64,000 bases of DNA from IMG/VR virus record IMGVR_UViG_3300034072_002212, positions 30,417-94,416 of that record, one strand, 5' to 3'. A program made the position numbers and the translations under genes. The stretch is from a virus (Duplodnaviria; Heunggongvirae; Uroviricota; Caudoviricetes). Every line of letters starts with the position of its first letter. The first letter of the stretch is position 1. Positions 3,756 through 56,040 of this stretch are shown here, in pieces. Below the pieces are notes generated by a model. It was not told the origin of the DNA. It did not search any database and worked only from the letters and a program-made list of their open reading frames with translations.

Positions 3756-4286
3756 TTAGCCTTGAGATGGCTTCTTAGGCGCCGGTGTGATAATCGTGAA
3801 CAACTGGCGTTCACTGCGGGCTACCGGACGCTCGAACTTGAACTCACCCACTTCTCTGAGAAAGTCCTGCATCACGGATGCGCCAACGTCCAAGTGGCTG
3901 ATTTCACGGCCCTTGAACTTGATGATCACCTTGACCTTGTTGCCTTCTTCCAGGAACCCCTGGGCGCGCTTGGCCTTGACTTTCAGGTCATTACTGTCTG
4001 TGGTCGGTCGCAGCTGGATCTCTTTGAGTTCCACGCGGTTTTCGCGATTCTTCTTCGCGTTCTCACGTTCCTTGCGACTCTGATCATACTTGAACTTGCC
4101 ATAGTCCAGGATCTTGCAGATCGGAATACCGTTGCTGATGTTGATCGCGACGAGGTCAAGTCCGGCCTCACGCGCACGGCGCTTGGCTTCGAGAGTTGGA
4201 ATAACACCTAGCTGCTCACCGGTGTCGGCAATGAGACGAACCTCCCTCGCTCGGATTTGGTCGTTCACCGCGTAGTTAGAATTCAC
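3756..4286 (-). CDS. infC: Translation initiation factor IF-3
   Basis: GTG start. IRAREVRLIADTGEQLGVIPTLEAKRRAREAGLDLVAI...ICKILDYGKFKY...VELKEIQLRP matches IF-3 N- and C-domain signatures over the full 176 aa. Confidence 0.85.
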   Translation of the reverse strand: MNSNYAVNDQIRAREVRLIADTGEQLGVIPTLEAKRRAREAGLDLVAINISNGIPICKILDYGKFKYDQSRKERENAKKNRENRVELKEIQLRPTTDSNDLKVKAKRAQGFLEEGNKVKVIIKFKGREISHLDVGASVMQDFLREVGEFKFERPVARSERQLFTIITPAPKKPSQG

Positions 4287-7167: not shown

Positions 7168-7245
7168 AGTGTGCCTCTGAGATATCTGGTAGTGATAAAG
7201 ACCGCCTGGACGGACTGTCTACTTATCACTACCAGATTGAGGCAA

Positions 7246-7668
7246 TTAGGCGAAGAGTGCCTTCAGCTTCTGCCAGAAGGTCAGCTTGGGAGCCGGGGTG
7301 AGGTCCGTCAGCCCATTGTAGCGGTCCAGGAACTTGTAGGAGATGTTCTTGGCACCGAAGGCCTTCAGCTTCTCGAATGCCATCTCTGGATCGAGGTCGC
7401 TGCAGGTGTAGATGTCGAATTCGATGAAAGGCTGATCGCACTCATCCCAGGTGTGAAGCACCATGTGGGAGGTGGTGATCAGAACGTCGGCAGTCATACC
7501 GCGGTTGCCCTCTTGCTCGCAATAAGCCGCGCTGGCCTTGCGAAGGACTTCCATACCCATGCCGTGAACGATGTCAGTGAGCCACTGCTCGACAAATCGC
7601 TCATCCTTCTTCAGGGGAGGATTGTCGACAGCGGCGTGAACAATTAGGTGCTTGTGAAGCTTTGCCAT
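7246..7668 (-). CDS. speH: Pyruvoyl-dependent S-adenosylmethionine decarboxylase (SpeH / class 1 AdoMetDC)
   Basis: HLIVHAA...ADVLITTSHMVLHTWDECDQPFIEFDIYTCSD-LDPEMAFEKLKAFGA aligns with the SpeH self-cleavage region (ESHLTIHTWPE...DLFTCGD..DP..AF). Confidence 0.65.
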   Translation of the reverse strand: MAKLHKHLIVHAAVDNPPLKKDERFVEQWLTDIVHGMGMEVLRKASAAYCEQEGNRGMTADVLITTSHMVLHTWDECDQPFIEFDIYTCSDLDPEMAFEKLKAFGAKNISYKFLDRYNGLTDLTPAPKLTFWQKLKALFA

Positions 7669-7754
7669 TGGTTACTCCTAATCAAAAGATCGCGCCTTGC
7701 GATAAGCGTGTCTCGGGAAGATTAGGATAACCGCTTCTTCCTCCGTAGCACTGT

Positions 7755-8306
7755 TTAGAAAAACTTTGCCGTAGCGGTGATATTTATCGGACTTGGGATC
7801 TTCTCATAGCCCTGTTGAGCAATGAGATCATTGGACTTTACGGGCTTGAAACCCGCCTCGCGATCCAACGACCACGTGATGTGGAAGGTCTTACCATCCG
7901 GGCGAACGGTTGTGCCGTCCACCTCGACCACCAATGCCTCGATGCCTGCTTCATCACAAGCGTAGCCCACCACACGTAAAGTGGAAGCTTCGGGCAAAGG
8001 CTGATCACTCGACACACCAAACTTATATGTGATATGGTGTCCGATGAACTCAGGGAACTTGGGTGGGAACACCTCGGCCAGAGCTGAACGCGAAGCCGCA
8101 CTCACCTCGAACGCTTGGTATCCCGCACGGGGCTTTGGGCCCTGCTCCATGAACTCTTTCGCTCGCAATCTGTCCTCCAATTGAGCATCTGATATGCAAC
8201 CAGCTGCGGTGTCTGTCAACCTTTCTGATAAATCATTCTGTATCCAGTGTGAAAATTGACGCTCTGGGTTCCTAAACCATATTGTAACACAAAGAACAAG
8301 GGTCAA
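7755..8306 (-). CDS. Hypothetical protein (183 aa)
   Basis: ORF only. Confidence 0.4.
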   Translation of the reverse strand: MTLVLCVTIWFRNPERQFSHWIQNDLSERLTDTAAGCISDAQLEDRLRAKEFMEQGPKPRAGYQAFEVSAASRSALAEVFPPKFPEFIGHHITYKFGVSSDQPLPEASTLRVVGYACDEAGIEALVVEVDGTTVRPDGKTFHITWSLDREAGFKPVKSNDLIAQQGYEKIPSPINITATAKFF

Positions 8307-8308
8307 CC

Positions 8309-10180
8309 ATGTCCAACAAGATTAAGAAACTCACAGATTATCAGCACGCCAGGCTCCGAACTGAGATGTACCTGGGTAGCCGTGCTCCACACACTCAGAC
8401 GATTCTCCAGATTGTGGATGGAAAGCCACAGCCGGTTGAGATGACATGGGTGCCAGCTCTCTACACGGCCTTTCGTGAGGTGCTCGACAACGCCCTCGAC
8501 GAGGTTATCGGCCATGGACATGGCAGCAAGATTAAGGTAACCTACGACGCAACGACACGCGAAATGAGCGTTGAAGACGACGGTCGTGGTATTCCTATCG
8601 CGTATGACGACGCTCATAAGATGCACCTCGCTACACTCGTTATGACAGAGGCACGAGCTGGTCGTAACTTCGAGGATCGCGGTGAGGTCGCAGGCACTAA
8701 CGGTATCGGTGCGAGCGTTGTGAACTTCTGCTCCGAGTATTTCAAGCTGGACATTCAGAAGGATGGTGAGCGTTTCCAGCAAGAGTTCACGCAGGGCAAC
8801 GCGGTCTTTGGTGATGAGCTACAGTTTGGCAAGGTCAAGCTGACCAAGAAGCAGGGACCCAACGGCACCAAGGTCACGTTCAAGCTTTCCAGCGAAGTCT
8901 TCCCAGATCTCAATCTCCCAGAAGAGTTCATTCGCTCGCGTGTCACTGAGGTGGCAATCTGTAATCCGCTGATCAAGATCTTCTACAACGGTGAGCAGAT
9001 CAAGGTGAAGCCTCGCCCAGAGCAGACTCTCTTCCCCGGTCAGAAGCCAATGGCCCTAGAGATCAAGGACGAGAACTTCCGTAGCCGCTTCTGGATTGTT
9101 CCCAACTGGACCACAGGTGGCGATCACGTCCACACCATTGTGAATAACATTCCTGCTTTCAACGGCGGCGTTCACATCGACACTTTCCGTCGCCTGTTCT
9201 ATGGTAACCTGCTGACTGCGCTGGAGAAGGAGAGCAAGCGTCGCAAGCTCAGCCCGAACCGCTCGGACGTCACTGAGGGTGTTCTGATCTACAACATCAC
9301 GAACATGCACGGTCCTAACTTCGACAGCCAGAGTAAGACTCGACTGATTAACGAAGAAGTGGGCAAGATCCTCAAGAACGATCTCGAGAATCCAGAGCTC
9401 TACAAGGACTTCATCAAGAAGAATCGCGACTGGATTGAGGAAATCTACAAGCGTTGTGCTGAGCGCACGATGAAGAAGGATGCCGCTGACATTGCGAAGG
9501 CGGCCAAGAAGAACCTTCGCAACAAGGTTCCTCGCCTCATGGACGCAACTGGTGGTGATCGCAGCAAGTGCATTCTCTTCCTAGCAGAGGGTGAATCGGC
9601 CATCAGCGGCATGGGTTCGGTTCGTGATCCAGACCTCCACGGTGGTCTTGGCATGAAGGGTAAGGTTCTCAACGTCAACGGCGAAATGCCCAAGAAAGTC
9701 ATTGAGAACAAGGAGCTCGCAGACATCATGAATTGTCTGGGGCTTGTCATTGGTCAGAAGGCCAAGCTTGAGGACCTGCGCTATGGCAAGGTCTATATCG
9801 CGCACGACATGGACCCTGACGGTCTGAACATCGGTGCGCTCTTGATCAACTTCTTCCACACCTACTGGCCAGAGTTGTTCGAGAATCCCACCAAGCCATT
9901 CGTTCACATTTTCCGCACTCCGTTCATCATCGCTGAGCGTGGCAAGTCCAGAAAGTACTGGTATGCCCATAACTATGGTGAATTCAAGCCGGAGGATTAC
10001 AGCGGCTGGACGATTACCCGCGCTAAGGGTCTGGGTACGCTGACTCGTGAAGACTGGGAATATTCGCTTGCGAACCCTGAGGTCTATCCGGTTATCGACG
10101 ATGGTAAGATGGGTGAGACTCTCGACTTGATCTTCAACAGCAAGCGTTCTGATGACCGCAAGGAATGGATTGGTCTATGA
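8309..10180 (+). CDS. DNA topoisomerase II large subunit (T4 gp39/gp60 fused type; GyrB-like ATPase + TOPRIM)
   Basis: GHKL ATPase motifs (EVLDNALDE, TNGIGASVVN), TOPRIM LFLAEGESA, 623 aa. Confidence 0.85.
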   Translation: MSNKIKKLTDYQHARLRTEMYLGSRAPHTQTILQIVDGKPQPVEMTWVPALYTAFREVLDNALDEVIGHGHGSKIKVTYDATTREMSVEDDGRGIPIAYDDAHKMHLATLVMTEARAGRNFEDRGEVAGTNGIGASVVNFCSEYFKLDIQKDGERFQQEFTQGNAVFGDELQFGKVKLTKKQGPNGTKVTFKLSSEVFPDLNLPEEFIRSRVTEVAICNPLIKIFYNGEQIKVKPRPEQTLFPGQKPMALEIKDENFRSRFWIVPNWTTGGDHVHTIVNNIPAFNGGVHIDTFRRLFYGNLLTALEKESKRRKLSPNRSDVTEGVLIYNITNMHGPNFDSQSKTRLINEEVGKILKNDLENPELYKDFIKKNRDWIEEIYKRCAERTMKKDAADIAKAAKKNLRNKVPRLMDATGGDRSKCILFLAEGESAISGMGSVRDPDLHGGLGMKGKVLNVNGEMPKKVIENKELADIMNCLGLVIGQKAKLEDLRYGKVYIAHDMDPDGLNIGALLINFFHTYWPELFENPTKPFVHIFRTPFIIAERGKSRKYWYAHNYGEFKPEDYSGWTITRAKGLGTLTREDWEYSLANPEVYPVIDDGKMGETLDLIFNSKRSDDRKEWIGL

Positions 10181-25026: not shown

Positions 25027-25371
25027 TTAGTCTACGATGCGGACCTTTGATCCCTTGAGCTTGACCAGCTTGTCATAGACCTCTGGGCTTACATTTACGC
25101 ACCCGTTGGTAATGAACTTGCGGTCTTCTGCGTTGGGGCTCTGAAGCCTTTCCCGCCTGCGCTCTCTGGGTCTCAGCGTCCAGACCCGGTGTATGGCATA
25201 GACATACTTGTCATCCTCGTGGAACTGAAGCACATCGCCGCCATACCCTTGGGCCAGGACCATCCTCTGCTGGATCGTGAACTCTCCCTTGGGAGTGTTC
25301 CCTCCAACAAGTGCCGGGTGACACTGTTGGAGGAAACAGATCAGAGCCAGCTTGAGGTGGACCGTGATCAC
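25027..25371 (-). CDS. L,D-transpeptidase (YkuD-like) catalytic domain protein
   Basis: YAIHRVW...ITNGCVNVSPEVYDKL resembles the YkuD (H/S)xGC(I/V)R catalytic region. Start overlaps the upstream stop. Confidence 0.5.
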   Translation of the reverse strand: MITVHLKLALICFLQQCHPALVGGNTPKGEFTIQQRMVLAQGYGGDVLQFHEDDKYVYAIHRVWTLRPRERRRERLQSPNAEDRKFITNGCVNVSPEVYDKLVKLKGSKVRIVD

Positions 25372-27017
25372 TGGCGGATCGGCTTGGCCGGGACCTCCAC
25401 GATAGTGGGCTGGGGAACCAGCGTTCCGACCTGGCAGCTCACCAGCTGGATGTTGGTCACCAGGCGGGTGTTGGACGAGCTGTTGCCGAAGCCGCCCTGA
25501 CCCCAGTCACCGTTGCCCGAACCGCCACCGATTGCGATGTTGCCACCGCCCGAGATGCCGACCACAGTCGTGAACATCACGACCTGGTGCCCGAAGAGCT
25601 GGATCGAACCATCCGGGAGAACGACCCGACGGTAGTCCAGGATATTGCCCGACGCGTCGAGGAACGGAGCCAGGTCATACGTGAAGCCCTGATCGACCTT
25701 GCTGCGGGTGAAGATGCCCGAGCGGGTGCCGATGATCGGGGTGCGGATCACGCTCTGGAGTGGACCGCAAGCCAGGGTCTCCTTGATGATGTTGCCGATA
25801 GCAACATGCGAGGGCGGAGTTGCAGGCACGACCGGCGGGATGAAGATCACGCGCGAATTGTCCGTGTAGGACGACGAGCTGCGGTCGCTTGCATCGACCA
25901 TCGTGGTGTTGCCCTGGGCCGCATTGGTGCTGTTGTTGCCAGCATTGCTCTGCGTCGAACGGCTGTTGTTGCCGGCATTGCTCTGCGAGGTGTTGCCGGT
26001 GGTCAGAGCCGTGTTCTGCGAGTTGCGGTTGTCGGAGTTGCCCGAACCATTGTTGCTCGCCGAATTGCGGTTCTGATTGGCGCTCGAAGCGTCGACATTG
26101 TTGCGCTGGTCCGCGCTGTTGCGCTGATCGGCCGTGGTGTTGTTGGACACGTTGGTCCGCTGATCACCACCGGTCATGGACTGGTTGCCGCCGGTCAGCG
26201 TCTGGTCGCCACCGGTCACGCGGGTATCACCGCCGTAGATCGACGAGTCCACGCTCAGCTTGTTGCCCGAGCCATTGCCGTTGCCGACGTCACCGATTGC
26301 CTGGCCCATGGTGTTGCCACCCGAATTGGAGCCGCTGATCGACTTGGAATCGTTGTTGAAGTCGTTGCCCGAACCGTTGCCGTTGCCGCTGTTCGCACCA
26401 GCGCCGGCACCTGCGAGAAGACCCGCACCAGCACCTGCTCCGGCGCCCGCATACTGACCCGCATTCGCACCAGCGCCTGCGCCAGCATACTGGCCTGCGT
26501 TCTGGCCCGCATGGGTGCCCACGTTGCCGACGGTCGAGGACGAAGCCGAATTGCCCGAATGGCCGACCGAACCACCAGCTGCATTGCCGCCCTGACCGTA
26601 GCCTACGCCGAGGCCCAGACCGGTGCCGCCCGTAGCATGTCCGCCGGAAGCGTTCGAGTTGGCGCCTGCGTTCGAGTTGGAGTTGGCCGTGCCGCCGCCG
26701 CCACCCTGACCTCCGTGACCGGTTCCACCGGAACCACCATAGCCGGTCCCGCCGTTGCCACCGTAGCCAGTGCCACCGTGACCACCTGCTCCGCCCTGGC
26801 CGCCGTTACCACCATTGCCACCATTGTTGCCGGTGGAAGGAGTCGGCGTGGGCGTCGGCGAAGGGGTCGGTGTGCCGCAGCCGTTGGTCTGTTGGCCTAC
26901 GCCACAACCACCGTTGCCGCCACCATTGTTGCCGTTATTGCTACCCTTGTTCGTCGCAAGGGCTGGCGACGCGATCACGCTGAGCGCAACGGCCGCCAAA
27001 AGAAGACTGCGATTCAT
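25368..27017 (-). CDS. Secreted Gly/Asn/Ser/Ala-rich low-complexity protein with a structured C-terminal domain (549 aa)
   Basis: Signal peptide MNRSLLLAAVALSVIASPALA, a TPTPSPTPTPTPS linker, GGxGGxGY and AGQYAGAGAG repeats, and a ~150-aa non-repetitive C-terminus. Confidence 0.55.
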   Translation of the reverse strand: MNRSLLLAAVALSVIASPALATNKGSNNGNNGGGNGGCGVGQQTNGCGTPTPSPTPTPTPSTGNNGGNGGNGGQGGAGGHGGTGYGGNGGTGYGGSGGTGHGGQGGGGGTANSNSNAGANSNASGGHATGGTGLGLGVGYGQGGNAAGGSVGHSGNSASSSTVGNVGTHAGQNAGQYAGAGAGANAGQYAGAGAGAGAGLLAGAGAGANSGNGNGSGNDFNNDSKSISGSNSGGNTMGQAIGDVGNGNGSGNKLSVDSSIYGGDTRVTGGDQTLTGGNQSMTGGDQRTNVSNNTTADQRNSADQRNNVDASSANQNRNSASNNGSGNSDNRNSQNTALTTGNTSQSNAGNNSRSTQSNAGNNSTNAAQGNTTMVDASDRSSSSYTDNSRVIFIPPVVPATPPSHVAIGNIIKETLACGPLQSVIRTPIIGTRSGIFTRSKVDQGFTYDLAPFLDASGNILDYRRVVLPDGSIQLFGHQVVMFTTVVGISGGGNIAIGGGSGNGDWGQGGFGNSSSNTRLVTNIQLVSCQVGTLVPQPTIVEVPAKPIRQ

Positions 27018-27613: not shown

Positions 27614-28057
27614 TTAGGGGATCGCCAGACGCAGAAACATCGCCCGTTTGGGCGCCTTGGAAAGCGGTTCGTCAATCATAGTGCCAATCTGCTCCAGCAG
27701 ACCAGGAATGCCTTCCATGAGACTAGGTTGCTTGCTCAGAAGATCCATAGCGTTTTGGCGAAGATCAAACCAGTAGTTGGCACCTGGCTTGCTATATTCA
27801 CCTGGGCCGACTTTCAGGGCATCAACATACGCCACGAAGTAGAACACCATCTTCTCTTGCTTGTGAAGCAAGCAAAGGTCTTTGAGCGTCTGGCCCAAGC
27901 GAGTGCAGCTACGGGTTAGTCTTCCCCGTTCATAGGGAGTGACCTGATTACAGTCCACGAATTCATTTTGCGTGGCATCTTTATGACTGCGGGAGACGTT
28001 GCGGACCACCCGTAGATGCTTGATCACATCCTTGTAGAGGTCCGCTACATCGCTCAC
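27614..28057 (-). CDS. Hypothetical protein (147 aa)
   Basis: ORF only. Confidence 0.45.
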   Translation of the reverse strand: MSDVADLYKDVIKHLRVVRNVSRSHKDATQNEFVDCNQVTPYERGRLTRSCTRLGQTLKDLCLLHKQEKMVFYFVAYVDALKVGPGEYSKPGANYWFDLRQNAMDLLSKQPSLMEGIPGLLEQIGTMIDEPLSKAPKRAMFLRLAIP

Positions 28058-28620
28058 GCGGTGGGCAACCCGTCCGGGCCGATGCCGATGATCTCACCGC
28101 CCACAAACTTGACCCGGCCTAGCTTGTCCGTGCCAGCTTGTGCCCAGCGCATCCACCAGATGTCCTCACGAACTTGCGTGACAATTTCACCTAGCCAGTT
28201 GGTGCCCTGCCAGGTGTTGCGGTCCTGGGCCAGGGGATCGTTGGACGCGAGGCCAATACCCCAGATCTTGTCCCACGGGCTTGCTTCGACCAGCGTGGTG
28301 CCTCGGGTACCCATCAGCCATTTCATCGCCTCGTGGTTCTGCGTGAACTTGGCAAAGTTGGCGCGGTAGACATACACCTTGGCATTGGCTTCCCAGATCG
28401 CCTTGTCGAAGTTCTGAACCGTGCGACCGGCGGCTTTCTGAATCTTGGGATTGTCGGTCCCCATGATGATTGCCAGCGCGGCCTGGTCGTCGAACAGGAT
28501 AGCCTTCTGAGCCATCATATACTGCTCGGCGCAGTTATACTTCACCCCGTCGAGAATGAACTCGCTGGGAGCCCACTGGCTTGCCCAGCCGCCATAGAAG
28601 AACGTGAACTGCTCAGCCAT
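28054..28620 (-). CDS. NADAR domain protein (YbiA-like, DUF1768)
   Basis: FFYGGWASQW...AEQYMMAQKA...FAKFTQNHEAMKWLMGTRGTTLVEASPWDKIWGIG aligns along the length of E. coli YbiA (FYS...SEHYFQAQKF...LVEHTENDAYWGDG). Confidence 0.7.
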   Translation of the reverse strand: MAEQFTFFYGGWASQWAPSEFILDGVKYNCAEQYMMAQKAILFDDQAALAIIMGTDNPKIQKAAGRTVQNFDKAIWEANAKVYVYRANFAKFTQNHEAMKWLMGTRGTTLVEASPWDKIWGIGLASNDPLAQDRNTWQGTNWLGEIVTQVREDIWWMRWAQAGTDKLGRVKFVGGEIIGIGPDGLPTA

Positions 28621-29095
28621 TGGGGCACCATCCCTTGCGCGCGCCGCCCACGTAGGGTCGTGCGTAGCTTTGCATGATCAGGTCCTGCGCGAGGTTCCGA
28701 CCGTTGACGTAGACGTCTGCGTCCACGCGCCCGCCATACTTGTCCCATTTGAGATTGGTCAGGGTGACCTTGTTACCAGCCAGCCTGATCATGCGGGTTG
28801 TGTAGAGCTTGGCACCGGCAGCGTTGCGCTTCTCGAACTCGCACTTGCCGCGCATCTCAGGGGTGTCCACTCCACGCACCCGAACGCCAATGCGGCTCAA
28901 CTCGGGCGGCAGGCCATCCATGCGGATGTAGAAGGTGTCTCCATCATAGATATCCACTACATCGTAGGTATAGGAACGAGAAGTCTGGGCTTGTGCCTCA
29001 TAGTGGCAAGCCCCGAGGCTTAGGGCCGCTGCGGCCAGGAGAGTGGATAGAATCTTCATGTCCATATCGCTATAGGATAGGTGACCGGTTGTCAA
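28613..29095 (-). CDS. Secreted staphylococcal-nuclease (thermonuclease) family lipoprotein
   Basis: Lipobox LSLGAC. DGDTFYI...VRVRGVDTPE...DKYGGRVDADVYVNGRNLAQDL matches SNase catalytic motifs. Confidence 0.7.
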   Translation of the reverse strand: MTTGHLSYSDMDMKILSTLLAAAALSLGACHYEAQAQTSRSYTYDVVDIYDGDTFYIRMDGLPPELSRIGVRVRGVDTPEMRGKCEFEKRNAAGAKLYTTRMIRLAGNKVTLTNLKWDKYGGRVDADVYVNGRNLAQDLIMQSYARPYVGGARKGWCPNG

Positions 29096-29137
29096 CCAGT
29101 CATGGAAAAGGCCCCGGTTTCCCGAGGCCTTTCCAGT

Positions 29138-30343
29138 TTAGCGAGCTGCCAGCTGAGCCTGCCGGTTGGCTGCGCTGAGCAGCGTTTCCTTGAGCTTCTG
29201 CTCGGCGCCCTGGAGCGCCACTTCGGCCGCAGCGCGCTTGGCCTTGCCCTGCTCCGCGAGGTCGATGCTCTCGTTGATCGTCGAGATCAGGTATTCGTTG
29301 GCCTCGACCGCCGCCTCGACGTCGAAGATACCACGCTCCATTTCCGTCCGGGTGATCCGGTTGGTCTCGTTGATCTGCTTCGCGCTGGCGACCAGCAGTT
29401 CGTTGGTGAAGTCGGTCGCGGCCTTGCTGGCCTTGCCGGCTTCCGCCGCGCGCCATGCGGCGATCTGAACCGCCATCGTGCGCTTCCAGAGGGGAACGGC
29501 CGTCAGGATCTGCGTCTGGATCTTCTCGGCCATGCCCTTGTCGTTGGCCTGGACGATGCGGATGCTGGGCAGCGCCTGGATGGTCACGTTGCGGGTCAGC
29601 AGCAGGTCAGCGCGCTTGCGCTCCAGCGAATCGCGCGCTTCGATCATGTCGCGCACTTCCTGGGTGTCGGCCATGTCCTGCGTCTCGTTGGCCTTTGCCT
29701 GGAGCCGCGGGATCTCGACGGTGTTGACCTCGTTGAGCAGCCACTCGACCGCCGCGATCTGCTCGTCGAGCGAATCCAGCAGGCCCAGCGTGGCCTCGTA
29801 TTGCTTGTCCAGCGCAACGATGTCCTTGAGCATCTGAACGCGATGACCCTCGAGCACGTTGGTCGACTTGATGATCTGCGCTTCGACCGTCTGATACTTG
29901 TCCAGGAACTTCTGGAGAACCGACGCGCCGCCGAACAGCTTCTTCAGGAAGCCAGGCTTCTTGCCCGCTGCCAGCTCACCAAAGTCCAGACCCTTCATGT
30001 CGCGCACCATCAGATTCAGCGCATCGCCGGCCGGACCCGTGTCCTTGGTGCGGACTCCCTGAAGCATCTGCTCCGAGACCTGAGTGGTCGCCTTCTGAGC
30101 TTCGACGCCGAAGGTGATGATCGACTGGCTGTCCTTGAGGTTGATCTTGCTGGCGAGCTCCTTGGCGCGCTCCGGCGAGATCTTGCGCGGCGCGCGTCCG
30201 GCGGCATTGTTGAGCGAGACGATTTCCTGCGAGCCGATCTCCGGCACGATCAGGGCATTGTCCGCCTGTGGGGTCGGGAGGAGTTCGCCGGTCAGAGACG
30301 GGGTTGCCGTCGCCGTGCCGACCTTGGTAGGATCAGTCGCCAT
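29138..30343 (-). CDS. TelA-like (toxic anion resistance / KlaB family) protein
   Basis: 401 aa, helical throughout, with a TelA-like organisation. An XpaC-like gene is adjacent, as in the Bacillus yaaN–xpaC operon. Confidence 0.55.
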   Translation of the reverse strand: MATDPTKVGTATATPSLTGELLPTPQADNALIVPEIGSQEIVSLNNAAGRAPRKISPERAKELASKINLKDSQSIITFGVEAQKATTQVSEQMLQGVRTKDTGPAGDALNLMVRDMKGLDFGELAAGKKPGFLKKLFGGASVLQKFLDKYQTVEAQIIKSTNVLEGHRVQMLKDIVALDKQYEATLGLLDSLDEQIAAVEWLLNEVNTVEIPRLQAKANETQDMADTQEVRDMIEARDSLERKRADLLLTRNVTIQALPSIRIVQANDKGMAEKIQTQILTAVPLWKRTMAVQIAAWRAAEAGKASKAATDFTNELLVASAKQINETNRITRTEMERGIFDVEAAVEANEYLISTINESIDLAEQGKAKRAAAEVALQGAEQKLKETLLSAANRQAQLAAR

Positions 30344-30348
30344 AGTGT

Positions 30349-31008
30349 TCAGATTCCCTCGTTCTGGAGACGGTTGTTCATGACCGTCATGTTCACGTCA
30401 AAATCCATGACGTCGTTGGACAGAAGCTTGTCGAGCAGCTTCTGAAAGTTGATCTCGATGGTGTCGAGCATTTCGTCGAACTTGGCCATCTGCTTCTGCG
30501 CCTCGAGGCTGCGCGAACCAGTGCGGCTCAAATGCGCGTAACCCTTGACCAGCGTGATAGTCTCGTCCAGGTAGCTGTTGAGCCAGCTCTGTGCAAGGAC
30601 CACGTCCTTGGGGTCGACGTGGAAGTCTTCGATGATCTTGCGACCGATGGCATCAATGTGCTTGATGCGCCGAACCGTGTTGGGGCTCTTGATCTGGGCG
30701 GCTTCCATGAGGATGCGGTCCAGCTTGTCGCTGCCCATCTTGATTGCTTCGACGACCAGCTTGGTGTCAACACCCGAGGTGCCGGCCGCGATGTCGTCGA
30801 TATGCTTGTGAAGAGCGCGGATGTCGTCAGCCGTTACGGGCTTGCGACCAGGCCAGAAATACCAGATGCCCGATCCTGTGAGTAGCGCCAGCGGCGCGCT
30901 GATCAGGATATCACCGATGAAGCCCGTGGGCAGAGCGGCCATGCCGCCGATGAAAACACAAGCGGCTCCTCCCAGCGCAGCCGCCTTACTCACTAGACTA
31001 TTTGCCAT
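30349..31008 (-). CDS. XpaC-like membrane protein (tentative)
   Basis: N-terminal TM segments followed by a helical cytoplasmic domain. Positioned next to TelA as in the Bacillus yaaN–xpaC pair. Confidence 0.35.
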   Translation of the reverse strand: MANSLVSKAAALGGAACVFIGGMAALPTGFIGDILISAPLALLTGSGIWYFWPGRKPVTADDIRALHKHIDDIAAGTSGVDTKLVVEAIKMGSDKLDRILMEAAQIKSPNTVRRIKHIDAIGRKIIEDFHVDPKDVVLAQSWLNSYLDETITLVKGYAHLSRTGSRSLEAQKQMAKFDEMLDTIEINFQKLLDKLLSNDVMDFDVNMTVMNNRLQNEGI

Positions 31009-31129
31009 TGCTACCTCGTTGTTACAGAGCTCTGTATAGTCCTAATTGGACATCTGTCTACCACTCATTTGTTCAGAAAGGAAGGGCCACGGTTTCCCGC
31101 AGCCCTTCCCCTACGAAGCCCAGTGAGGG

Positions 31130-32869
31130 TTATTCAGCGTCGGGATGAATCCCTGCCAGCCGCTGAAGTTCCTCACGCTCGTCGGCCGGGAGAGGCTCGT
31201 CGCGCACCCGGCGGGGCTTGGGGGCCGGAACCGCCTTGGCCACCGGCGCATCACCGTTGCCGGTGATCGGAGCCGAAAGACCATCGACCACACCCGACAT
31301 GCCCTTGCTCAGGTCAATGCCAAGTTCCTTGGCCAGCTCGTCCACGAAGGGAGCCTGGAGCCGGTAGCCCAGCAGAGCGTCAGTCATCTGGCCGGGCAGA
31401 CCGTTACCGCCGTTTCCCGAGGTCTCGCCCTCCTCACCGCCGAAGGTGCGACCGCCACCGATGCCGCCGTTCATGTGAACAACGCGGAAGCTGTCAATCT
31501 TCTCGATGGGCTTGCCCATCTGCTCGAGGATCTCAGGCAGCTTGTCGATGAGCTTGAGGCGGATCTGCAGCGCAGCCTGCTCAGGGCTCATGAGGTTCGC
31601 AGCTTCGTTCAGCGCCCGCTGACCCTCGGCCTCAACCTCGTAACGACGTGCGTCTGCCTCGACTAGGCGCTCCTTGGCCTTGGCGCTGGCGTCAGCTGCC
31701 GCGAGCTCAGCTTCCGCACGGATGCGGATACCAGCGGCCTCTTCCTGTGCCTTGGTCTCGGCCGCGATGACCGCAACCTTCTGGTCACGCTGGGCGCGCG
31801 CTTCGGCCTCAACGGTCTTCACCGCTTCAGCAGCCGCGACCGCAGTCGCGCGGGCTTCGTCAGCCTTGGCACGAGCAGTCGACTCTTCCTCGGACTTCTG
31901 GGCGACCGCAATGCGCGATGCCTGTGCCGCAATCTCGAGAGCCTGTGCGGCCTCGGTCTCTGCGACCTGAATCCGGCGCTTCTGCTCGACACGCGCTGCC
32001 TCGGTGGCCTGGTTGGCCTCGATTTCAGCGATGTCAGCTTCGCGAGTGCGCTCAGCGCGGATCTTCGCAAGACTAGCAGCCTGCTCGGCGCGCTGGGTCT
32101 CGACCTGACGCTCCTGCTCCAGGGTTGCGAATTCGTCCTGCTGCTTGATTTCGAGCGAACGCTTGTTCGCCTCGAAGTTCTTCTGCTCGATGGCGACGCG
32201 GTTGTCGGCCTCGATTTCGTTGCGCTCCTTGCGGCGGGTCTCGGTCACGCTCGTGAGCTTAGCCAGACCTTCAGCGTCGAACGCATTGTTGGGGTTGAAG
32301 TGCTCGACCGACGTCTGGTCCAGACCGGTCAGCGAGACCGATTCCAGTTCCAGACCGTTCTTCTTCAGGTCTTCAGCCGCTGTGGTCTGGACCTGCTTCA
32401 CGAAGTCGGCCCGCTTCTCATGAAGGTCCTGCATGTCCATGCCCGCCGCAACAGCGCGCAGAACGTCGACGAACTTGCCTTCAATCAGCTCAGCGAGCTG
32501 CTGGGGGTTGGTCGTCCGCTTACCCAGGGTCTGCGCCGCTGCCGCGATGCTTTCCAGATCCGGCGACACACGAACGTAGAACTCAGCCTTCACGTCAACG
32601 CGCAGGCGGTCCTTGGTGATCAGCGAGTCCTTGGCCTTGCGATCGACGGTGAGGCGCAGGGTCTGCATATTGATGTCCACAGTCTCGTGGAACACCGGCA
32701 GAATCAGAGCACCGCCGTCCTTGACGACCTTCTGACCGCCCATACCCGTGCGGACGAATGCCATTTCCTTGGACGCTCGCTTATAAAGCTGCGTCATGAA
32801 GAAGACAATCACACCAAGGACGACAACCGCCCCCAGGATGATCGCCCCAATAAAGGTGAGATTATCCAA
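31130..32869 (-). CDS. Flotillin / band-7 (SPFH) protein, YqiK-like
   Basis: N-terminal TM, SPFH core (ILPVFHETVDINMQTLRLTVD...) and a very long A/E/K/R coiled coil. 579 aa. Confidence 0.75.
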   Translation of the reverse strand: MDNLTFIGAIILGAVVVLGVIVFFMTQLYKRASKEMAFVRTGMGGQKVVKDGGALILPVFHETVDINMQTLRLTVDRKAKDSLITKDRLRVDVKAEFYVRVSPDLESIAAAAQTLGKRTTNPQQLAELIEGKFVDVLRAVAAGMDMQDLHEKRADFVKQVQTTAAEDLKKNGLELESVSLTGLDQTSVEHFNPNNAFDAEGLAKLTSVTETRRKERNEIEADNRVAIEQKNFEANKRSLEIKQQDEFATLEQERQVETQRAEQAASLAKIRAERTREADIAEIEANQATEAARVEQKRRIQVAETEAAQALEIAAQASRIAVAQKSEEESTARAKADEARATAVAAAEAVKTVEAEARAQRDQKVAVIAAETKAQEEAAGIRIRAEAELAAADASAKAKERLVEADARRYEVEAEGQRALNEAANLMSPEQAALQIRLKLIDKLPEILEQMGKPIEKIDSFRVVHMNGGIGGGRTFGGEEGETSGNGGNGLPGQMTDALLGYRLQAPFVDELAKELGIDLSKGMSGVVDGLSAPITGNGDAPVAKAVPAPKPRRVRDEPLPADEREELQRLAGIHPDAE

Positions 32870-32891
32870 CTACTTTCTCCTGGTGATCTGT

Positions 32892-33551
32892 TTAGATCTT
32901 GCGAACGATGAATGCGTAAGCGCGTTCTCGGTGTGGACCGATTAGCACCACCTGTGAACCATTTGCAATACTTTCTTCTCCCTCCCCACAAACCATTACT
33001 GTGTGATCGGTTCCATGCGCGTCAGTAAAGCGCGCCATGCCAAAGTCCTCGCGGGCAATTGGACCAACAGTCACAACGCCGGCAGAACCCGTGAGACTCT
33101 CGAGGCTAACGGCATTCGACTCATCCTTGGGAAGGACGGGAGCGAGCCCCAGAGAACACAAACGAACGGTTGGAAGGGTGAGAGCGAGCACGATGGGCGC
33201 ACCAAAGAGCGCAGGCGCTAGGGAGCCCGTCAGTCCATCATAGATCCACTGAGCACTGTAGCCCAGGAGAGCAAAGCTGCCGCAGAATAGCGTGAGGAAG
33301 ATTGTGCTGGGCACATGGCCGGGATTGGCCCAACCGATGATACCAGCATGGCCGATTTCCAGATGATCTGGAATGCCGTTGCCGTTGAGGTCTAGGCTAA
33401 AATCAGCATGGCCATGGAGGGCATCAAAGCCAGCGCCCAGCGCCATTCCAATGATGCCGAAGAGGAGAAGGGCGAGAACCACACATCCTGAAATTAGGTA
33501 TGGGAGGTTGGGCCCGGCTGTAAGGAAATCCATGAGGCTCATAAGCCCCAC
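32892..33551 (-). CDS. NfeD/YqiJ-like membrane protein, partner of the flotillin gene
   Basis: Multiple TM helices plus a C-terminal OB-fold-like segment (GSAGVVTVGPIAR...ARFTDAHGTDHTVMV...GSQVVLIG). Lies immediately upstream of the flotillin gene. Confidence 0.55.
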   Translation of the reverse strand: MGLMSLMDFLTAGPNLPYLISGCVVLALLLFGIIGMALGAGFDALHGHADFSLDLNGNGIPDHLEIGHAGIIGWANPGHVPSTIFLTLFCGSFALLGYSAQWIYDGLTGSLAPALFGAPIVLALTLPTVRLCSLGLAPVLPKDESNAVSLESLTGSAGVVTVGPIAREDFGMARFTDAHGTDHTVMVCGEGEESIANGSQVVLIGPHRERAYAFIVRKI

Positions 33552-33588
33552 ATACAGGACTAGGAAGCCCTATGTCAAATGTATTGGA

Positions 33589-34103: not shown

Positions 34104-34178
34104 TGGTGCTGTTGGGGAGGATTGAACTCCCGACTTCCTCATTACCAATGAGGTACTCTACCACTGAGTTACAACAGC
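34104..34178 (-). tRNA. tRNA-Thr (anticodon GGU), 75 nt with encoded CCA
   Basis: Folded by hand: acceptor GCTGTTG/CAACAGC, D-arm ACTC-AGTGGTA-GAGT, anticodon arm CCTCA-TTGGTAA-TGAGG, T-arm GGGAG-TTCAATC-CTCCC, discriminator A, CCA. Confidence 0.75.
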
Positions 34179-34194: not shown

Positions 34195-34222
34195 TGTATA
34201 GCACCAACACGCCTATTTATCA
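34195..34222 (-). promoter_or_regulatory. Sigma70-like promoter TTGATA-N16-TATACA upstream of tRNA-Thr
   Basis: -10 at 34200-34195 and -35 at 34222-34217 on the minus strand. Predicted start about 10 nt before the tRNA 5' end. Confidence 0.4.
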
Positions 34223-34582
34223 AAATAGATATACCATCTTTTTCAAATGGTCCTGCGCTTCCTGAGGGCGGTAGGGCTTCATGAGAACCTCCCAACCCGC
34301 ATAGCAATCATGAAGGGCATTGGAATCACTGCCTGAGCAAACGACTACATGGATGCCCATACCACGAAGCTTTTCAGCTACCGGCTGGCTAGTCCCGTCG
34401 TGAAGGTTCACGTCGAGGATCACCCCGGTGAGATTGGAACCATGCTTGTCGATAATCTCCAGGGCCTCACCGCTTGTCATTGCTATCCCTGCTATCTCGA
34501 TGTCAGCGAGGGCGCAAATGTCTTCCCATAGGAAGTGAAGCATCGGCTCGTCTTCTACGAGCAGGATTAGACCTTTGGTCAT
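34220..34582 (-). CDS. Single-domain response regulator (CheY-like receiver)
   Basis: LILLVEDEP...GVILDVNLHDG...KPY: the acidic pocket, phospho-acceptor Asp and conserved Lys are in their expected positions. Confidence 0.7.
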   Translation of the reverse strand: MTKGLILLVEDEPMLHFLWEDICALADIEIAGIAMTSGEALEIIDKHGSNLTGVILDVNLHDGTSQPVAEKLRGMGIHVVVCSGSDSNALHDCYAGWEVLMKPYRPQEAQDHLKKMVYLF

Positions 34583-34596
34583 ACTGGCCTCCGTGC

Positions 34597-35127
34597 TTAG
34601 AACGCGGCCAGTTTTGCAAGCATCACCTGATCGACAGTCCCCTTGTCGAGGATCATCGCGCTGGAGGGCTTACCAACACGAACCATTGCGTTCTTGATTT
34701 CATGGTTGCCCAAACCGCTCTTGAACAGTCGAGCGTAAATGGTGCCCTTGTCCGAGATCTTGCGAACAGTGCCCATGACCATGTCCACACGGGCGCCGTC
34801 AGTGCCACGGGGGAACAAAATCGTATGGCCGACCTCAATCGTGCGACCCATCAGGTCGTGATAGGCCGGAGTGGTCTTGTCCTCTGCGAAATGAGTACCG
34901 CCATGCCAGTCCACAAGATGCTCCAAATTCGAGCCCTTGACCCAAAAAGGACGTTTGCCCTTGACTGCGAGCTGGTATTCGTGGGCGCTGAAATACTTGG
35001 AGTTAACCTGCATTACGCGACCCACCGTGCCAGCACGGGGTCCAGTCGTTACGCGAACAAACTGTGGACCTTCTTCCATGGACTTCAGAAGACTCATAGC
35101 AGCATAATGGTTATTCAGGCTCATCAA
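34597..35127 (-). CDS. Hypothetical protein (176 aa)
   Basis: ORF only. Confidence 0.45.
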   Translation of the reverse strand: MMSLNNHYAAMSLLKSMEEGPQFVRVTTGPRAGTVGRVMQVNSKYFSAHEYQLAVKGKRPFWVKGSNLEHLVDWHGGTHFAEDKTTPAYHDLMGRTIEVGHTILFPRGTDGARVDMVMGTVRKISDKGTIYARLFKSGLGNHEIKNAMVRVGKPSSAMILDKGTVDQVMLAKLAAF

Positions 35128-35676: not shown

Positions 35677-37428
35677 CTAGCCATTCTTGGATGCGAGTTC
35701 GTTCACAACCATGTGATTGAGGTCAGAGATCCTGTAGGGCTTGCCTAGCACCTTGATCTTATGACTGCGGTCTCGCTTGAGCTCCCTAAGGGCCACTTCA
35801 GCATGACCTGTGGTGAAGATCACGGGTAAATCCGGACGGATATTGCTGGCAGCTTTGGCAAGCTGGAAACCATCAATGCCATTGGGCATCACAACGTCGG
35901 TGAACAATAGGTCAATGGGAATGTCGAGATTCTGAATGATCTCCAGTGCGCTTTTGCCATCTTGTGCGCTCAGGACATTGTAGCCCATTTCCATCAAAGC
36001 CTGCGCTGCGAGCTCTCTGACGCCGGGCTCGTCATCTACCACAAGAATGCTGGCCTTGGTAGCGTCGTAGTTGAAGTCTTCCTCGTCCCGCGTTTCTTCG
36101 ACCGTTTCTCCGGCTGTGTAGGGGAAGAGCATCTCTACGGTTGTTCCCTTGCCCAACACGCTGTCAATGAAGACCTTGCCGTTGCTCTGCTGACAGAAGC
36201 CATAGACCATGGAGAGACCAAGCCCACTACCCTTGCCCACGTCCTTGGTCGTGTAGAATGGTTCAAAGGCCCGTTCTTTGGTTTCCTGAGTCATGCCTTC
36301 GCCAGTATCACTGACGCTGACACTCACAAAGCGCGTGTCGTCAATGGAACGGTTTTGTGTCTTAATACAGATCCGACCACCATTGGGCATTGCGTCTCTG
36401 GCGTTGATGCCAAGGTTGAGAATAGCACTCTCGAGCTGTGATTTGTCGCTCAAGCAAAGCCAGACGTCTTCCTGGAGATCAATCTCAACAGGAATACTAA
36501 CACCGACCGCCCGCTGGACCATTTCCTGGACGCCAACGACGACCTCGTTGACGTTCAGTCGCTCGGGATGGAGTCGCGATTTACGAGAGAACGCAAGCAA
36601 TTGGCTCGTGAGCTTTTCTGCCTTGAGGGCGGCCTCGATCGCCATGGAAGTCTGACGTTCAATACGCTTTGCCACGGAGTTGTCTGGCAAGTTGGCCAGA
36701 CTCATCTTCGAGAGCTCGAGGTTCCCGATGATCACTGTGAGCATGTTGTTGAAATCGTGCGCGATACCACCGGTCAACTGCCCAACGCTCTCCATCTTTT
36801 GTGCCTGGCGGAGAGCATCCTGTGTTTTCTGCCGCTCTTCAATCTCTTGAAGGAGGCGCTCATTTGCTTCCTCGAGCTCTTGAGTGCGTTCGCGGACTTT
36901 GGTCTCTAGCAGTTCGTGAGCGTGGATAGATTCTTCCTGAGCCATTTTGAGCTCATGAATTATTGAAGCAACACCCAGCCATTTTACGAGGTTTTCGTTA
37001 TCATCCTTGATGGCTCGAGTGGTTGCACGGAACCAGCGATATTCTCCGTCATGTCGACGAATGCGAAACTCGGCTTCGTATGCTAACCCCTTGACATAAT
37101 GCTCTTCCATTGCCAGACGAATTACTGCTATATCGTCGGGATGAATGCATGTCTTCCAAAGATAATCATCATCAAGGGAGTATTTTACTCCCGTGAATTC
37201 AAACCAAAAATTATTGAGATAGGTGAGATTTCCCTGATCGTCTCGGGTCCAGATAATTGTCGGCGCAAGATCTGTGAGCATCTTGATATTGATGTCAGAT
37301 TTGATCGCCTTATCCACAAAACCCTCATCGCCCACTCCGCAGACAAGAAGACCTTGGGGTAATGGCCTACCTCCGGTCTGTCGCTTTGGCATCGAGAACC
37401 CCTTTAGAAGCGTAACGAATAGAACCAA
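35677..37428 (-). CDS. Hybrid sensor histidine kinase (PAS – HisKA – HATPase – receiver)
   Basis: H-box IAHDFNNMLTVI; ATPase DTGEGM...GSGLGLSMV; C-terminal receiver ILVVDDEP...DLLFTDVVMP. Uses a TAG stop. Confidence 0.8.
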   Translation of the reverse strand: MVLFVTLLKGFSMPKRQTGGRPLPQGLLVCGVGDEGFVDKAIKSDINIKMLTDLAPTIIWTRDDQGNLTYLNNFWFEFTGVKYSLDDDYLWKTCIHPDDIAVIRLAMEEHYVKGLAYEAEFRIRRHDGEYRWFRATTRAIKDDNENLVKWLGVASIIHELKMAQEESIHAHELLETKVRERTQELEEANERLLQEIEERQKTQDALRQAQKMESVGQLTGGIAHDFNNMLTVIIGNLELSKMSLANLPDNSVAKRIERQTSMAIEAALKAEKLTSQLLAFSRKSRLHPERLNVNEVVVGVQEMVQRAVGVSIPVEIDLQEDVWLCLSDKSQLESAILNLGINARDAMPNGGRICIKTQNRSIDDTRFVSVSVSDTGEGMTQETKERAFEPFYTTKDVGKGSGLGLSMVYGFCQQSNGKVFIDSVLGKGTTVEMLFPYTAGETVEETRDEEDFNYDATKASILVVDDEPGVRELAAQALMEMGYNVLSAQDGKSALEIIQNLDIPIDLLFTDVVMPNGIDGFQLAKAASNIRPDLPVIFTTGHAEVALRELKRDRSHKIKVLGKPYRISDLNHMVVNELASKNG

Positions 37429-54369: not shown

Positions 54370-56040
54370 ATGTTGAAGTGGATCTTTGAGAACAAAGCCG
54401 CAGCCGAAAAGAAGAAGCAACGCGAGGATGTTCTCAAGGCTGCTCTTGAATCTGGTGAGGCACTGGAGCGGGCCGCTAAGGGCACAATGAACCTGGCTCA
54501 GGATGTTACTGAGACTCTCCAGGCGAAGATTGATGACTACGCCGCGCAGATCGACCAAACCTCCCGCCTCCTAAGTGACGCACTCATGCTGGTCAGCGTC
54601 GATGGTGAGATTCAGAGCTTTAACCCAGCTGCTGAAACCATGTTTGGTTGGAAAAAGCGCGAGGTCATTGGCAAGAAGATCTCCACCATCTTCCAGTTCT
54701 CCCAAGAAACTGTTGTGAACAGTGAGTTCATGGAAAATCTCGTTGGCAAGGTCAACGACGATGATGAGTTCACGTCAGTCCACCATGAAGAGTTCATGGG
54801 CCTCTGCAAGGATGGTACCACGATCTACATTGACGTAGGCGCCAGCAAGTTCGTTCGCAGTGACAAGAAGATCTATTACATCATGCTTGTCCGCAACGTC
54901 ACACAACGCGTCAACAATAGCAAGATGATCCGAGAACTTGCTGAACGCAACCAGGAACTCCTGACTACTATTGATGCGTCCTCAACTGGTTTCATGATCC
55001 TGACCCCCGATGGTTCAGATTTCAACATCAGCTTCGTCAATGAGGGTTTTGCCAAGCTCACTGGTATGAAGCGTGCTCAGATCCGCAAAATGAGTATCAG
55101 GGATCTCTTTGGAGTTGAGTCCACATTCTGGGCTATCCGTCGAACCCTCATCGAGGGCACTGAAGGCCGTCACGAGGTTCAGTTTGAAATCGGTATGAGC
55201 CAGACCACTTGGTTTGAAGTCCACATCACCCCAGTGAAGAAGGGCATGCAACCAGTTCAGTGGATTTTGGTCTTCTATGATACGACTGAGCTCAAGAAAG
55301 CCTATCATGCGCTCAGCAAGAGTGAAGCGCACTTCCGAGCATTCTCGGATGCCAGCTCTGAAAGCATGATCATTCACGATTACAAGACCCTCATGGATTG
55401 GAACGATCGCGTAGCTCTGCTGACTGGCTACAATGACGCAGAGATCGAGAAGATGAACTTCTTCGACTTCCTACATCCTCTTCAGAGGGAAGAGGCCATG
55501 TCGAAGCAAGACCTCAGTATCGATGGCAGCTACGAAACCTTGTTCATGACCAAGACTGGTGATGTCAAGGAAGTCGCAGTGAACAGTCGTGCGATTGAGT
55601 GGGACAACGCTGAGGCACAGATCGCTATCGTGCGCGACATCACCGAGTTCAAGGACATCGAGACTCAGCTGAAGAACTCGAGGGAGCGTTACAAGACGGT
55701 CATCGAGAACACTATTGACATGGTGATCTGCTTCAACAGCAACTTTGAGATCACGTTCAGCAATCAGACGTTCCGAGACTACTTTGATGTGGAACTCGAG
55801 GATATCAATGGCTTCTCGCTCCTGGAAATCATCCCAGAGAGTGACCACAAGAAGTTCAAGGAGTATATGCTGAGTATCACTCCTGAACAGGATATTCGTC
55901 GCGGCGTTCACCGCGTTCAGCGTCATGATGAGACCCGTTGGCAGGATTGGATCGATCGTGGCATCTTTGATGAAGAGGGTAATCTGATCGAGATCCAGAG
56001 TGTGGCCCGAGACATTCAGCACCTGATGCCCAGCCAATAA
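54370..56040 (+). CDS. Multi-PAS domain protein (four PAS/PAC modules, no output domain)
   Basis: Four repeats of the PAS core pattern (for example VSVDGEIQSFNPAAETMFGWKKREVIGKKI and ILTPDGSDFNISFVNEGFAKLTGMKRAQIRKMSI). Confidence 0.65.
   Translation: MLKWIFENKAAAEKKKQREDVLKAALESGEALERAAKGTMNLAQDVTETLQAKIDDYAAQIDQTSRLLSDALMLVSVDGEIQSFNPAAETMFGWKKREVIGKKISTIFQFSQETVVNSEFMENLVGKVNDDDEFTSVHHEEFMGLCKDGTTIYIDVGASKFVRSDKKIYYIMLVRNVTQRVNNSKMIRELAERNQELLTTIDASSTGFMILTPDGSDFNISFVNEGFAKLTGMKRAQIRKMSIRDLFGVESTFWAIRRTLIEGTEGRHEVQFEIGMSQTTWFEVHITPVKKGMQPVQWILVFYDTTELKKAYHALSKSEAHFRAFSDASSESMIIHDYKTLMDWNDRVALLTGYNDAEIEKMNFFDFLHPLQREEAMSKQDLSIDGSYETLFMTKTGDVKEVAVNSRAIEWDNAEAQIAIVRDITEFKDIETQLKNSRERYKTVIENTIDMVICFNSNFEITFSNQTFRDYFDVELEDINGFSLLEIIPESDHKKFKEYMLSITPEQDIRRGVHRVQRHDETRWQDWIDRGIFDEEGNLIEIQSVARDIQHLMPSQ

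Follow-up and report, generated by a model that had tools for sequence, protein, structure and literature searches.

A conserved four-gene cassette joining yqiJ–flotillin and xpaC–telA in a lineage of jumbo phages, with a possible role at the host inner membrane

The DNA analysed here, referred to as the window, is a 64,000-nt stretch of a Caudoviricetes virus (IMG/VR record IMGVR_UViG_3300034072_002212, positions 30,417 to 94,416). Four consecutive genes on its minus strand, yqiJ, a flotillin gene (flot), xpaC and telA, fill positions 29138–33551, exactly where an earlier note made from the sequence alone had placed them. Family assignments were judged by the curated Pfam gathering cut-offs, with weaker matches listed down to E≤0.01, and all four proteins score above these cut-offs (Table 1). 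The TelA and XpaC assignments, which the earlier note had regarded as its weakest, are upheld: TelA gives the strongest match of the four and also matches PHROG 5890 ‘tellurite resistance’ (3.1e-35), and the XpaC score exceeds its cut-off more than threefold. The flotillin had been called YqiK-like, and both its Band_7 and Flot domains and the name YqiK given by JGI to an identical protein agree with this. We rejected the protein as a FloT orthologue, as it reaches 75.5 bits against a cut-off of 700 for the NCBIfam equivalog NF058507; it is of the YqiK type. For the first gene, described as NfeD/YqiJ-like, the YqiJ half of the label stands with the YqiJ_N and YqiJ_OB matches, but the NfeD half does not, as the Pfam scan of YqiJ returned no NfeD match (PF01957) at E≤0.01. 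YqiJ is ‘NfeD-like’ only in the loose sense of being an OB-fold partner of an SPFH protein. Within each pair the genes are tightly packed, with 22 nt between yqiJ and flot and 5 nt between the xpaC stop and the telA start. GC content at third codon positions is 0.86 for telA, 0.77 for xpaC, 0.75 for flot and 0.56 for yqiJ; other phage genes reach 0.83–0.85 as well, and the values give no clear sign of recent import.

Genes of the window for the two subunits each of topoisomerase II and ribonucleotide reductase, and for a tRNA nucleotidyltransferase, a primase, a DnaB-type helicase and a virion protein, mark it as phage DNA. Its flotillin and TelA are identical to proteins on a 468,011-bp JGI contig; the carrier of the window is a jumbo phage of 468 kb, which bears out the phage context given earlier. 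By virion protein, the nearest cultured relatives are Sinorhizobium phage Phosso (469 kb, 37% identity) and Agrobacterium phage Atu_ph07 (490 kb, 33%), the latter not among the matches of the flotillin search. Counting the window, 12 phage loci were examined, and yqiJ, flot, xpaC and telA stand in identical order in every one; the named relatives with the four-gene cassette are Phosso, L002–L008, L096 and L098. Seven IMG/VR contigs of up to 465 kb carry it at 42–84% identity, and it is also found in the more divergent L096 and in the 480-kb, Phosso-like L098. In Phosso the cassette corresponds to genes 491–494, two of them annotated as hypothetical; Pfam confirms all four, with identities to the window proteins of 28% for YqiJ, 50% for flotillin, 28% for XpaC and 40% for TelA. 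A megablast search with the 4.4-kb cassette against phage records gave no match, and relatives were found only by protein-level searches. The immediate flanks differ between subclades: the window clade has a DUF4326 gene upstream and SNase-like and NADAR genes downstream, which are missing from Phosso and L098. A wider synteny around the cassette, comprising DUF7217, PAAR and orf34597, is retained. The phage-specific orf34597 has a homologue upstream of yqiJ in every subclade, which directly adjoins yqiJ in Phosso (gene 490) and L098, and no homologue beside the bacterial flotillins; it may be a fifth component or merely syntenic. The 176-aa open reading frame (ORF) upstream of yqiJ in Sphingomonas gilva, considered as a relative of orf34597, showed no similarity to it. 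A further locus, L097 (positions 6357–8677 of the 869,618-bp ENA contig k141_178484), encodes yqiJ–flot at 54% identity amid phage-like content (HNH, Gad2-like and SspB proteins and many small ORFs); the contig represents a huge phage or else a misassembly, for instance a concatemer.

Ratios of nonsynonymous to synonymous substitution rates (dN/dS) were obtained for five pairs of loci and range over 0.09–0.16 for yqiJ, 0.08–0.18 for flot and 0.06–0.16 for xpaC; for telA four pairs give 0.06–0.14 and the fifth, L002/L004, gives 0.30. In L006/L007, the pair with the least saturation, the values for the four genes are 0.086, 0.078, 0.160 and 0.055. Judged from these ratios of about 0.05–0.18, all four cassette genes are under purifying selection. 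In a bootstrapped neighbour-joining tree the flotillins of the four-gene loci fall on one side of a split with 59% support, and the Sphingomonadales flotillins form a tight clade (100% support) on the opposite side, the phage proteins lying on long branches. This topology fits, with moderate support, a single old origin of the flotillin in the phage lineage. The earlier description of the genes as imported can thus hold only for the deep past; a recent moron is ruled out by the presence of the cassette in 12/12 loci, down to 28–50% identity in Phosso, and by the purifying selection. Similarity is mosaic within the lineage: TelA is 84% identical between the window and L002 and 56% between L002 and L004, yet the flotillins of these pairs are 75–76% identical. 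This hints at recombination between the two gene pairs among related phages. YqiJ is the most divergent cassette protein throughout the comparisons with L002–L008.

Transcription signals were sought by aligning the non-coding gaps of nine of the phage loci, which brought out conserved elements that a consensus promoter and terminator scanner had missed; the scanner itself reported fewer sites in the real than in shuffled sequence. Upstream of yqiJ, a box reading TTGACA, ATGACA or ATGACG occupies the equivalent place in eight of the nine loci, with the exact TTGACA in six; the scanner overlooked it because the −10 box lacks the final T. As this promoter-like element overlaps the called GTG start at 33551, yqiJ probably begins instead at ATG 33542 or at ATG 33533 (MDFLTAG...); YqiJ proteins of relatives align from residue 4–9, and a start with ‘MD’ matches the ATG at 33533. 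Between flot and xpaC lies a hairpin whose 13 pairs include 11 with compensatory double changes across the nine loci (covariation −4.12 kcal/mol in RNAalifold), and which is a predicted intrinsic terminator. About 20 nt beyond it the hexamer GTAGAC is invariant in all nine loci, Phosso included, in the midst of diverged non-coding sequence; the overlapping TAGACA matches TTGACA at five of six positions, and TAGACA-N16-TATACA is a plausible host-type promoter for xpaC–telA. GTAGAC was rejected as a general phage promoter motif, being not enriched and having just a single further composite match across the window; since it is not repeated, it appears specific to the flot/xpaC junction. A terminator-like hairpin and a TTGACA box that follow telA are conserved in the window, L002 and L004 and are not alignable in other relatives. 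The ‘one unit’ of the earlier note is therefore not sustained: with terminators and promoter-like boxes delimiting each gene pair, the cassette is best read as two adjacent operons, yqiJ–flot and xpaC–telA, each with a σ70-like promoter box and a terminator. Presumably these signals are in use and expression is early.

Table 1. Genes and sequence signals of the window (positions are those of the window).
Feature	Position	Strand	Length	Description
yqiJ	32892–33551 (as called)	−	219 aa	YqiJ_N PF21001, E=3.4e-16 (59.9 bits); YqiJ_OB PF07290, E=9.9e-8 (32.4 bits)
flotillin (flot)	31130–32869	−	579 aa	Flot PF15975, E=2.7e-35 (121.6 bits); Band_7 PF01145, E=6e-18 (65.9 bits)
xpaC	30349–31008	−	219 aa	Halogen_Hydrol/XpaC PF10112, E=1.1e-29, 104 bits (cut-off 29.8)
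telA	29138–30343	−	401 aa	TelA PF05816, E=1.7e-87, 294 bits (cut-off 30), profile positions 2–331 of 332
Promoter-like element 5′ of yqiJ	33549–33578	−		TTGACA (33578–33573), 18-nt spacer, TATGTG; directly after DUF4326 stop codon
Predicted intrinsic terminator, flot/xpaC	31075–31109	−		13-bp hairpin (31109–31097 pairs with 31092–31080), loop GAAA, then TTTCT
Promoter-like element for xpaC–telA	31033–31061	−		GTAGAC (31061–31056), 16-nt spacer after TAGACA, TATACA (31038–31033)
xpaC ribosome-binding site	31017–31014	−		GAGG, 5′ of xpaC ATG
Terminator-like hairpin 3′ of telA	29107–29132	−		AAAGGCCTCGG-GAAA-CCGGGGCCTTT; pairing read from sequence
TTGACA box after telA hairpin	29095–29090	−		Positioned for the next gene (SNase-like lipoprotein)
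SNase-like nuclease	28613–29095	−		Directly 3′ of telA; N-terminus MKILSTLLAAAALSLGAC, lipoprotein-signal-like
NADAR-domain protein	28054–28620	−		E=3.7e-46; PADLOC candidate family PDC-M42C, 2.7e-38
tRNA-Thr	34104–34178	−		Anticodon GGT; between receiver-like gene and DUF4326; sole tRNA in window
Stand-alone receiver-like protein	34220–34582	−		Small; below Pfam cut-off
orf34597	34597–35127	−	176 aa	Phage-specific; KOW E=0.004, below Pfam cut-off
Hybrid histidine kinase	35677–37428	−		Cytoplasmic; PAS, HisKA, HATPase_c, receiver
Low-complexity ORF	25368–27017	−	549 aa	Signal-peptide-like N-terminus; very long Gly/Asn/Ser/Ala-rich stretches; no Pfam match
PAS protein	54370–56040	+	556 aa	About four PAS domains, no output domain; second sensor-type protein in window
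IF3 homologue	3756–4286	−		Full-length, IF3_N + IF3_C
ClpX-like AAA+ ATPase	4346–5602	−		N-terminal zinc-binding-type segment; PHROG 4339, ATP-dependent protease families

Hydropathy, composition and AlphaFold2 models give a topology that fits a membrane module, with flotillin, YqiJ and XpaC anchored and TelA devoid of an anchor. From its N-terminus, the flotillin comprises a hydrophobic anchor (residues 1–30), the SPFH/Band_7 domain, a helical region of some 250 residues rich in Ala and Glu, the Flot domain and a Gly/Pro-rich tail. Residues ~200–450 contain no Pro or Gly, and Ala, Glu, Lys, Arg and Gln make up 52–74% of them. The A/E/K coiled coil of roughly 250 residues that had been predicted here is thus confirmed as a long, low-complexity helical stretch but not in its lysine richness, Lys contributing 4–10%; Ala, Glu, Arg and Gln are the abundant residues instead. 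YqiJ, in which an N-terminal membrane domain is followed by a C-terminal OB-fold, has hydrophobic segments at residues 12–46 and 106–140 and is predicted to be an inner-membrane protein and the membrane partner of the flotillin. In XpaC residues 5–48 are hydrophobic, and the model (mean predicted local distance difference test score, pLDDT, 73) places helices at 4–25 and 30–50 ahead of a confident bundle at 82–200 (pLDDT 80–94); XpaC is accordingly modelled as a membrane protein in which two transmembrane helices at the N-terminus precede a helical bundle in the cytoplasm, and is presumed to be a membrane partner or regulator of TelA. TelA itself has no hydrophobic segment, as fits a soluble protein, and its model, built from a 35-sequence alignment, shows long helices at a weak mean pLDDT of 61. 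Foldseek searches of the PDB with the TelA and XpaC models gave no match at E≤0.001, the weaker matches being generic helical bundles and ClyA-type toxins at template-modelling (TM) scores of 0.2–0.4; the best for the weak TelA model were ClyA-family helical toxins (E~0.02, TM 0.2–0.27), none of them significant. A sequence search of TelA and flotillin against PDB chains found nothing. As nothing in the all-helical XpaC model resembles an enzyme, the PF10112 family name (‘hydrolysis protein’) is probably misleading for this protein.

The bacterial surroundings of each pair were then compared with the phage arrangement. On the flotillin side the sampling is thin, with four bacterial loci and a neighbourhood of 6 kb; on the TelA side, the 80 closest Alpha- and Gammaproteobacterial loci (40–48% identity) were drawn from a TelA profile scan of a species-level genome collection, and their neighbours counted by tblastn. 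The nearest named bacterial flotillins are from Sphingomonadales, at 53–55% identity. The cassette had been described as reproducing two bacterial gene pairs, and this is borne out: yqiJ adjoins the flotillin gene in all four bacterial flotillin loci, and xpaC lies directly upstream of telA in 76 of the 80 TelA loci. Neither xpaC nor telA occurs within 6 kb of the flotillin in any of the four loci, nor is a YqiK-type flotillin or YqiJ encoded within 10 kb of telA in any of the 80; the four-gene combination was not found among the sampled bacteria. An SPFH gene of another kind does accompany the bacterial telA, lying downstream of it, mostly immediately, in 66/80 loci, and is followed by a zinc-ribbon protein gene in 52/80. 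One example of this SPFH protein, scanned with Pfam, comprises Band_7_1 (4.8e-98) and GYF_2. With 66 of 80 loci so arranged, TelA proteins of this subfamily have an SPFH partner as a rule, and the pairing of SPFH with TelA is no coincidence of the present phage. The flotillin, though from a different family and in a different position, would thus fill the role of SPFH partner beside the phage XpaC–TelA. This proteobacterial operon of xpaC, telA, SPFH (Band_7_1 + GYF_2) and zinc-ribbon genes is widespread and is seen among the loci L016–L095; an example is L013, 6043–10492.

Other genes around the cassette include several of possible relevance to the host. The window clade and L096 both retain the SNase-like gene, which Phosso lacks. 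The called TTG start of this gene lies within the TTGACA box, so that translation probably begins at ATG 29065, and the lipoprotein-like N-terminus suggests that the predicted nuclease is exported. The NADAR protein may be a candidate counter-defence gene. Upstream of the cassette and on the same strand, the hybrid kinase and the receiver-like protein form a two-component-like pair; the kinase is 64–67% identical in L004, L006 and L007, and L098 has an HWE-type kinase nearby. A 491-aa ORF overlapping the low-complexity ORF on the opposite strand is probably spurious.

We read the cassette as a phage-made module that would maintain the host inner membrane during infection, because the literature places both gene pairs at the membrane; the reading is tentative, with a probability of roughly 0.45. 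In Bacillus subtilis, PspA depends on the SPFH protein YdjI to reach the membrane, and a terminator internal to the pspA-ydjGHI operon sets differing expression levels (PMC8581546). Deletion of xpaC in Enterococcus faecium alters daptomycin binding and phospholipid microdomains, and does so only with telA intact (PMC6811118); a Listeria telA mutant is described, in work cited in PMC12791056, as more sensitive to nisin. By analogy, two adjacent operons, apparently using host-type promoters, would build the membrane module. The yqiJ–flot operon would supply an SPFH scaffold, in which the flotillin, held in the inner membrane by its N-terminal hydrophobic segment, would use its Flot domain and its long helical region rich in Ala and Glu to oligomerize into an assembly beneath the membrane, with YqiJ acting as its membrane partner. 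XpaC, as a two-helix membrane protein, would tether soluble, helical TelA to the membrane or regulate it there. Jointly the products of both operons might preserve an intact, fluid and energized membrane in the infected cell throughout the long and demanding replication of a ~470-kb phage. A coupling between the two operons, whether physical or functional, is what we infer here, along with the time of their expression and a benefit to the phage.

Several observations weigh against this reading. The separate promoter-like boxes and the intervening terminator weaken the case for co-regulation, no sampled bacterial locus has both pairs (0/80 TelA loci and 0/4 flotillin loci), and the phage-like L097 has yqiJ–flot without xpaC–telA. 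L096 carries an extra 138-aa ORF between xpaC and telA. The TelA model is poor (pLDDT 61), and both TelA and XpaC lack a significant structural match. Conserved adjacency, moreover, could just reflect the general synteny of the genome region. The probabilities of the maintenance reading and of its rivals are not mutually exclusive, and several may hold together.

The same signals, the same bacterial separation and the same L097 locus all favour the view that yqiJ–flot and xpaC–telA are two unrelated accessory modules, which would act separately and be neighbours through regional synteny, as the wider retention of DUF7217, PAAR and orf34597 would allow. We hold this possible if somewhat doubtful: adjacency and order are kept in 12/12 loci despite replaced immediate flanks between subclades, and an SPFH gene is linked to the closest bacterial telA in most loci. 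Superinfection exclusion, by which flotillin and XpaC–TelA assemblies would alter the inner membrane and keep out the DNA of a second phage, seems to us plausible but rather unlikely; it is one of two functions suggested in the earlier note, the other, stabilization of the inner membrane, being plausible too. Iyer et al. (2021) proposed sub-membrane structures blocking entry for jumbo-phage TelA and Ter proteins (PMC7824862), a proposal that is itself a hypothesis. TelA occurs alone in other jumbo phages (Munch, 7t3), and the SNase-like nuclease with its lipoprotein-type signal, encoded downstream in the window clade and L096, could degrade incoming DNA; Phosso and L098, however, lack this neighbour, none of the four cassette proteins matches a PADLOC-DB defence model at E≤0.01, and no TerB, TerC, TerD, TerF or Ter biosynthetic gene was found among the scanned ORFs neighbouring the cassette. 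We consider it unlikely that the cassette serves counter-defence, in the sense of buffering the membrane against depolarizing or perforating abortive-infection effectors so that the phage completes its cycle. TelA/XpaC and SPFH/PspA systems do protect from membrane-active agents, host-interaction genes lie nearby, such as that for the NADAR protein matching a PADLOC candidate family, and host-type promoter-like boxes would fit early expression; yet no known anti-defence family was matched, and present data do not distinguish this explanation from general membrane maintenance. Control of lysis timing or of proteolysis, with a flotillin scaffold sequestering holins or modulating FtsH-type proteases and thereby delaying lysis or protecting phage proteins, is very improbable: HflK/C-type SPFH proteins cage FtsH and a ClpX-like ATPase is encoded in the window, but no holin, endolysin or FtsH-related gene was found beside the cassette, the flotillin is of the YqiK and not the HflK/C type, and XpaC–TelA would be left without a role.

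TelA and XpaC are common bacterial envelope-stress proteins, for which we know of no established mechanism, and the role of bacterial flotillins is debated. The habitual link of XpaC–TelA to an SPFH protein in Proteobacteria and the phage trio under purifying selection together point to a putative functional connection between SPFH proteins and TelA. Taken further, and as a speculation drawn by analogy that we would not count as likely, XpaC–TelA might be a widespread, unrecognized SPFH-dependent membrane-repair machine akin to PspA–YdjI, which the ~470-kb phages would have rebuilt around flotillin–YqiJ and would deploy early to shield the host membrane from the burden of the phage, from abortive-infection effectors or from rival phages. 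Were the repair idea true, it would provide a first mechanism for TelA and XpaC. The cassette would also add membrane homeostasis to the host functions carried by giant phages; if the genes are dispensable passengers, they are ordinary host-like accessory genes on a jumbo phage. With Phosso in culture on Sinorhizobium meliloti, the function of the cassette is directly testable.

Among known systems, the yqiJ–yqiK pair of Escherichia coli and Sphingomonadales shares with the phage pair its two Pfam architectures and their adjacency; the phage pair, however, adjoins xpaC–telA, as none of the four bacterial loci does. The xpaC–telA (yaaN) pair of Firmicutes, as in B. subtilis, L. monocytogenes (lmo1966–1967) and E. 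faecium, has the same families, order and near-abutting junction, and the published phenotypes of the bacterial copies concern the cell membrane and envelope antibiotics. Phage XpaC is shorter than its proteobacterial relatives (219 against ~300 aa), and no bacterial TelA relative found exceeds 48% identity to the phage protein. The proteobacterial operon, for which no description was found in the literature searched, provides the closest bacterial TelA and likewise unites XpaC, TelA and an SPFH protein in one cluster. Its SPFH protein, by contrast, is a soluble Band_7_1 protein encoded 3′ of telA with a zinc-ribbon gene, whereas that of the phage is an anchored Band_7 + Flot protein encoded 5′ of xpaC with yqiJ. 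This operon also resembles pspA-ydjGHI of B. subtilis, with TelA in the place of PspA. To that system, whose YdjI we take to be a Band_7_1 member, the phage cassette is likened as a working analogy: there an SPFH protein and small membrane proteins bring a soluble helical effector to the membrane, and the cluster contains a terminator. The weak TelA model gave no significant fold match, and TelA is compared with PspA by analogy. Salmonella phage Munch, 7t3 and Xanthomonas phage XaC1 are among further jumbo phages with stand-alone TelA or Ter genes, but their TelA proteins are only ~23% identical to that of the window; for Munch, the only one of them inspected, the two ORFs upstream of telA match neither XpaC nor any SPFH family. 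In T4-like phages SPFH ORFs are known, also alone (PMC1524935). The literature searched offered no relevant paper joining flotillin with jumbo phages, none combining TelA, SPFH and tellurite, and none on Phosso. Stand-alone TelA in jumbo phages and stand-alone SPFH ORFs in T4-like phages are therefore already known; what appears to be new is the conserved four-gene arrangement in a jumbo-phage lineage, and the regular link of xpaC–telA to an SPFH gene in Proteobacteria.

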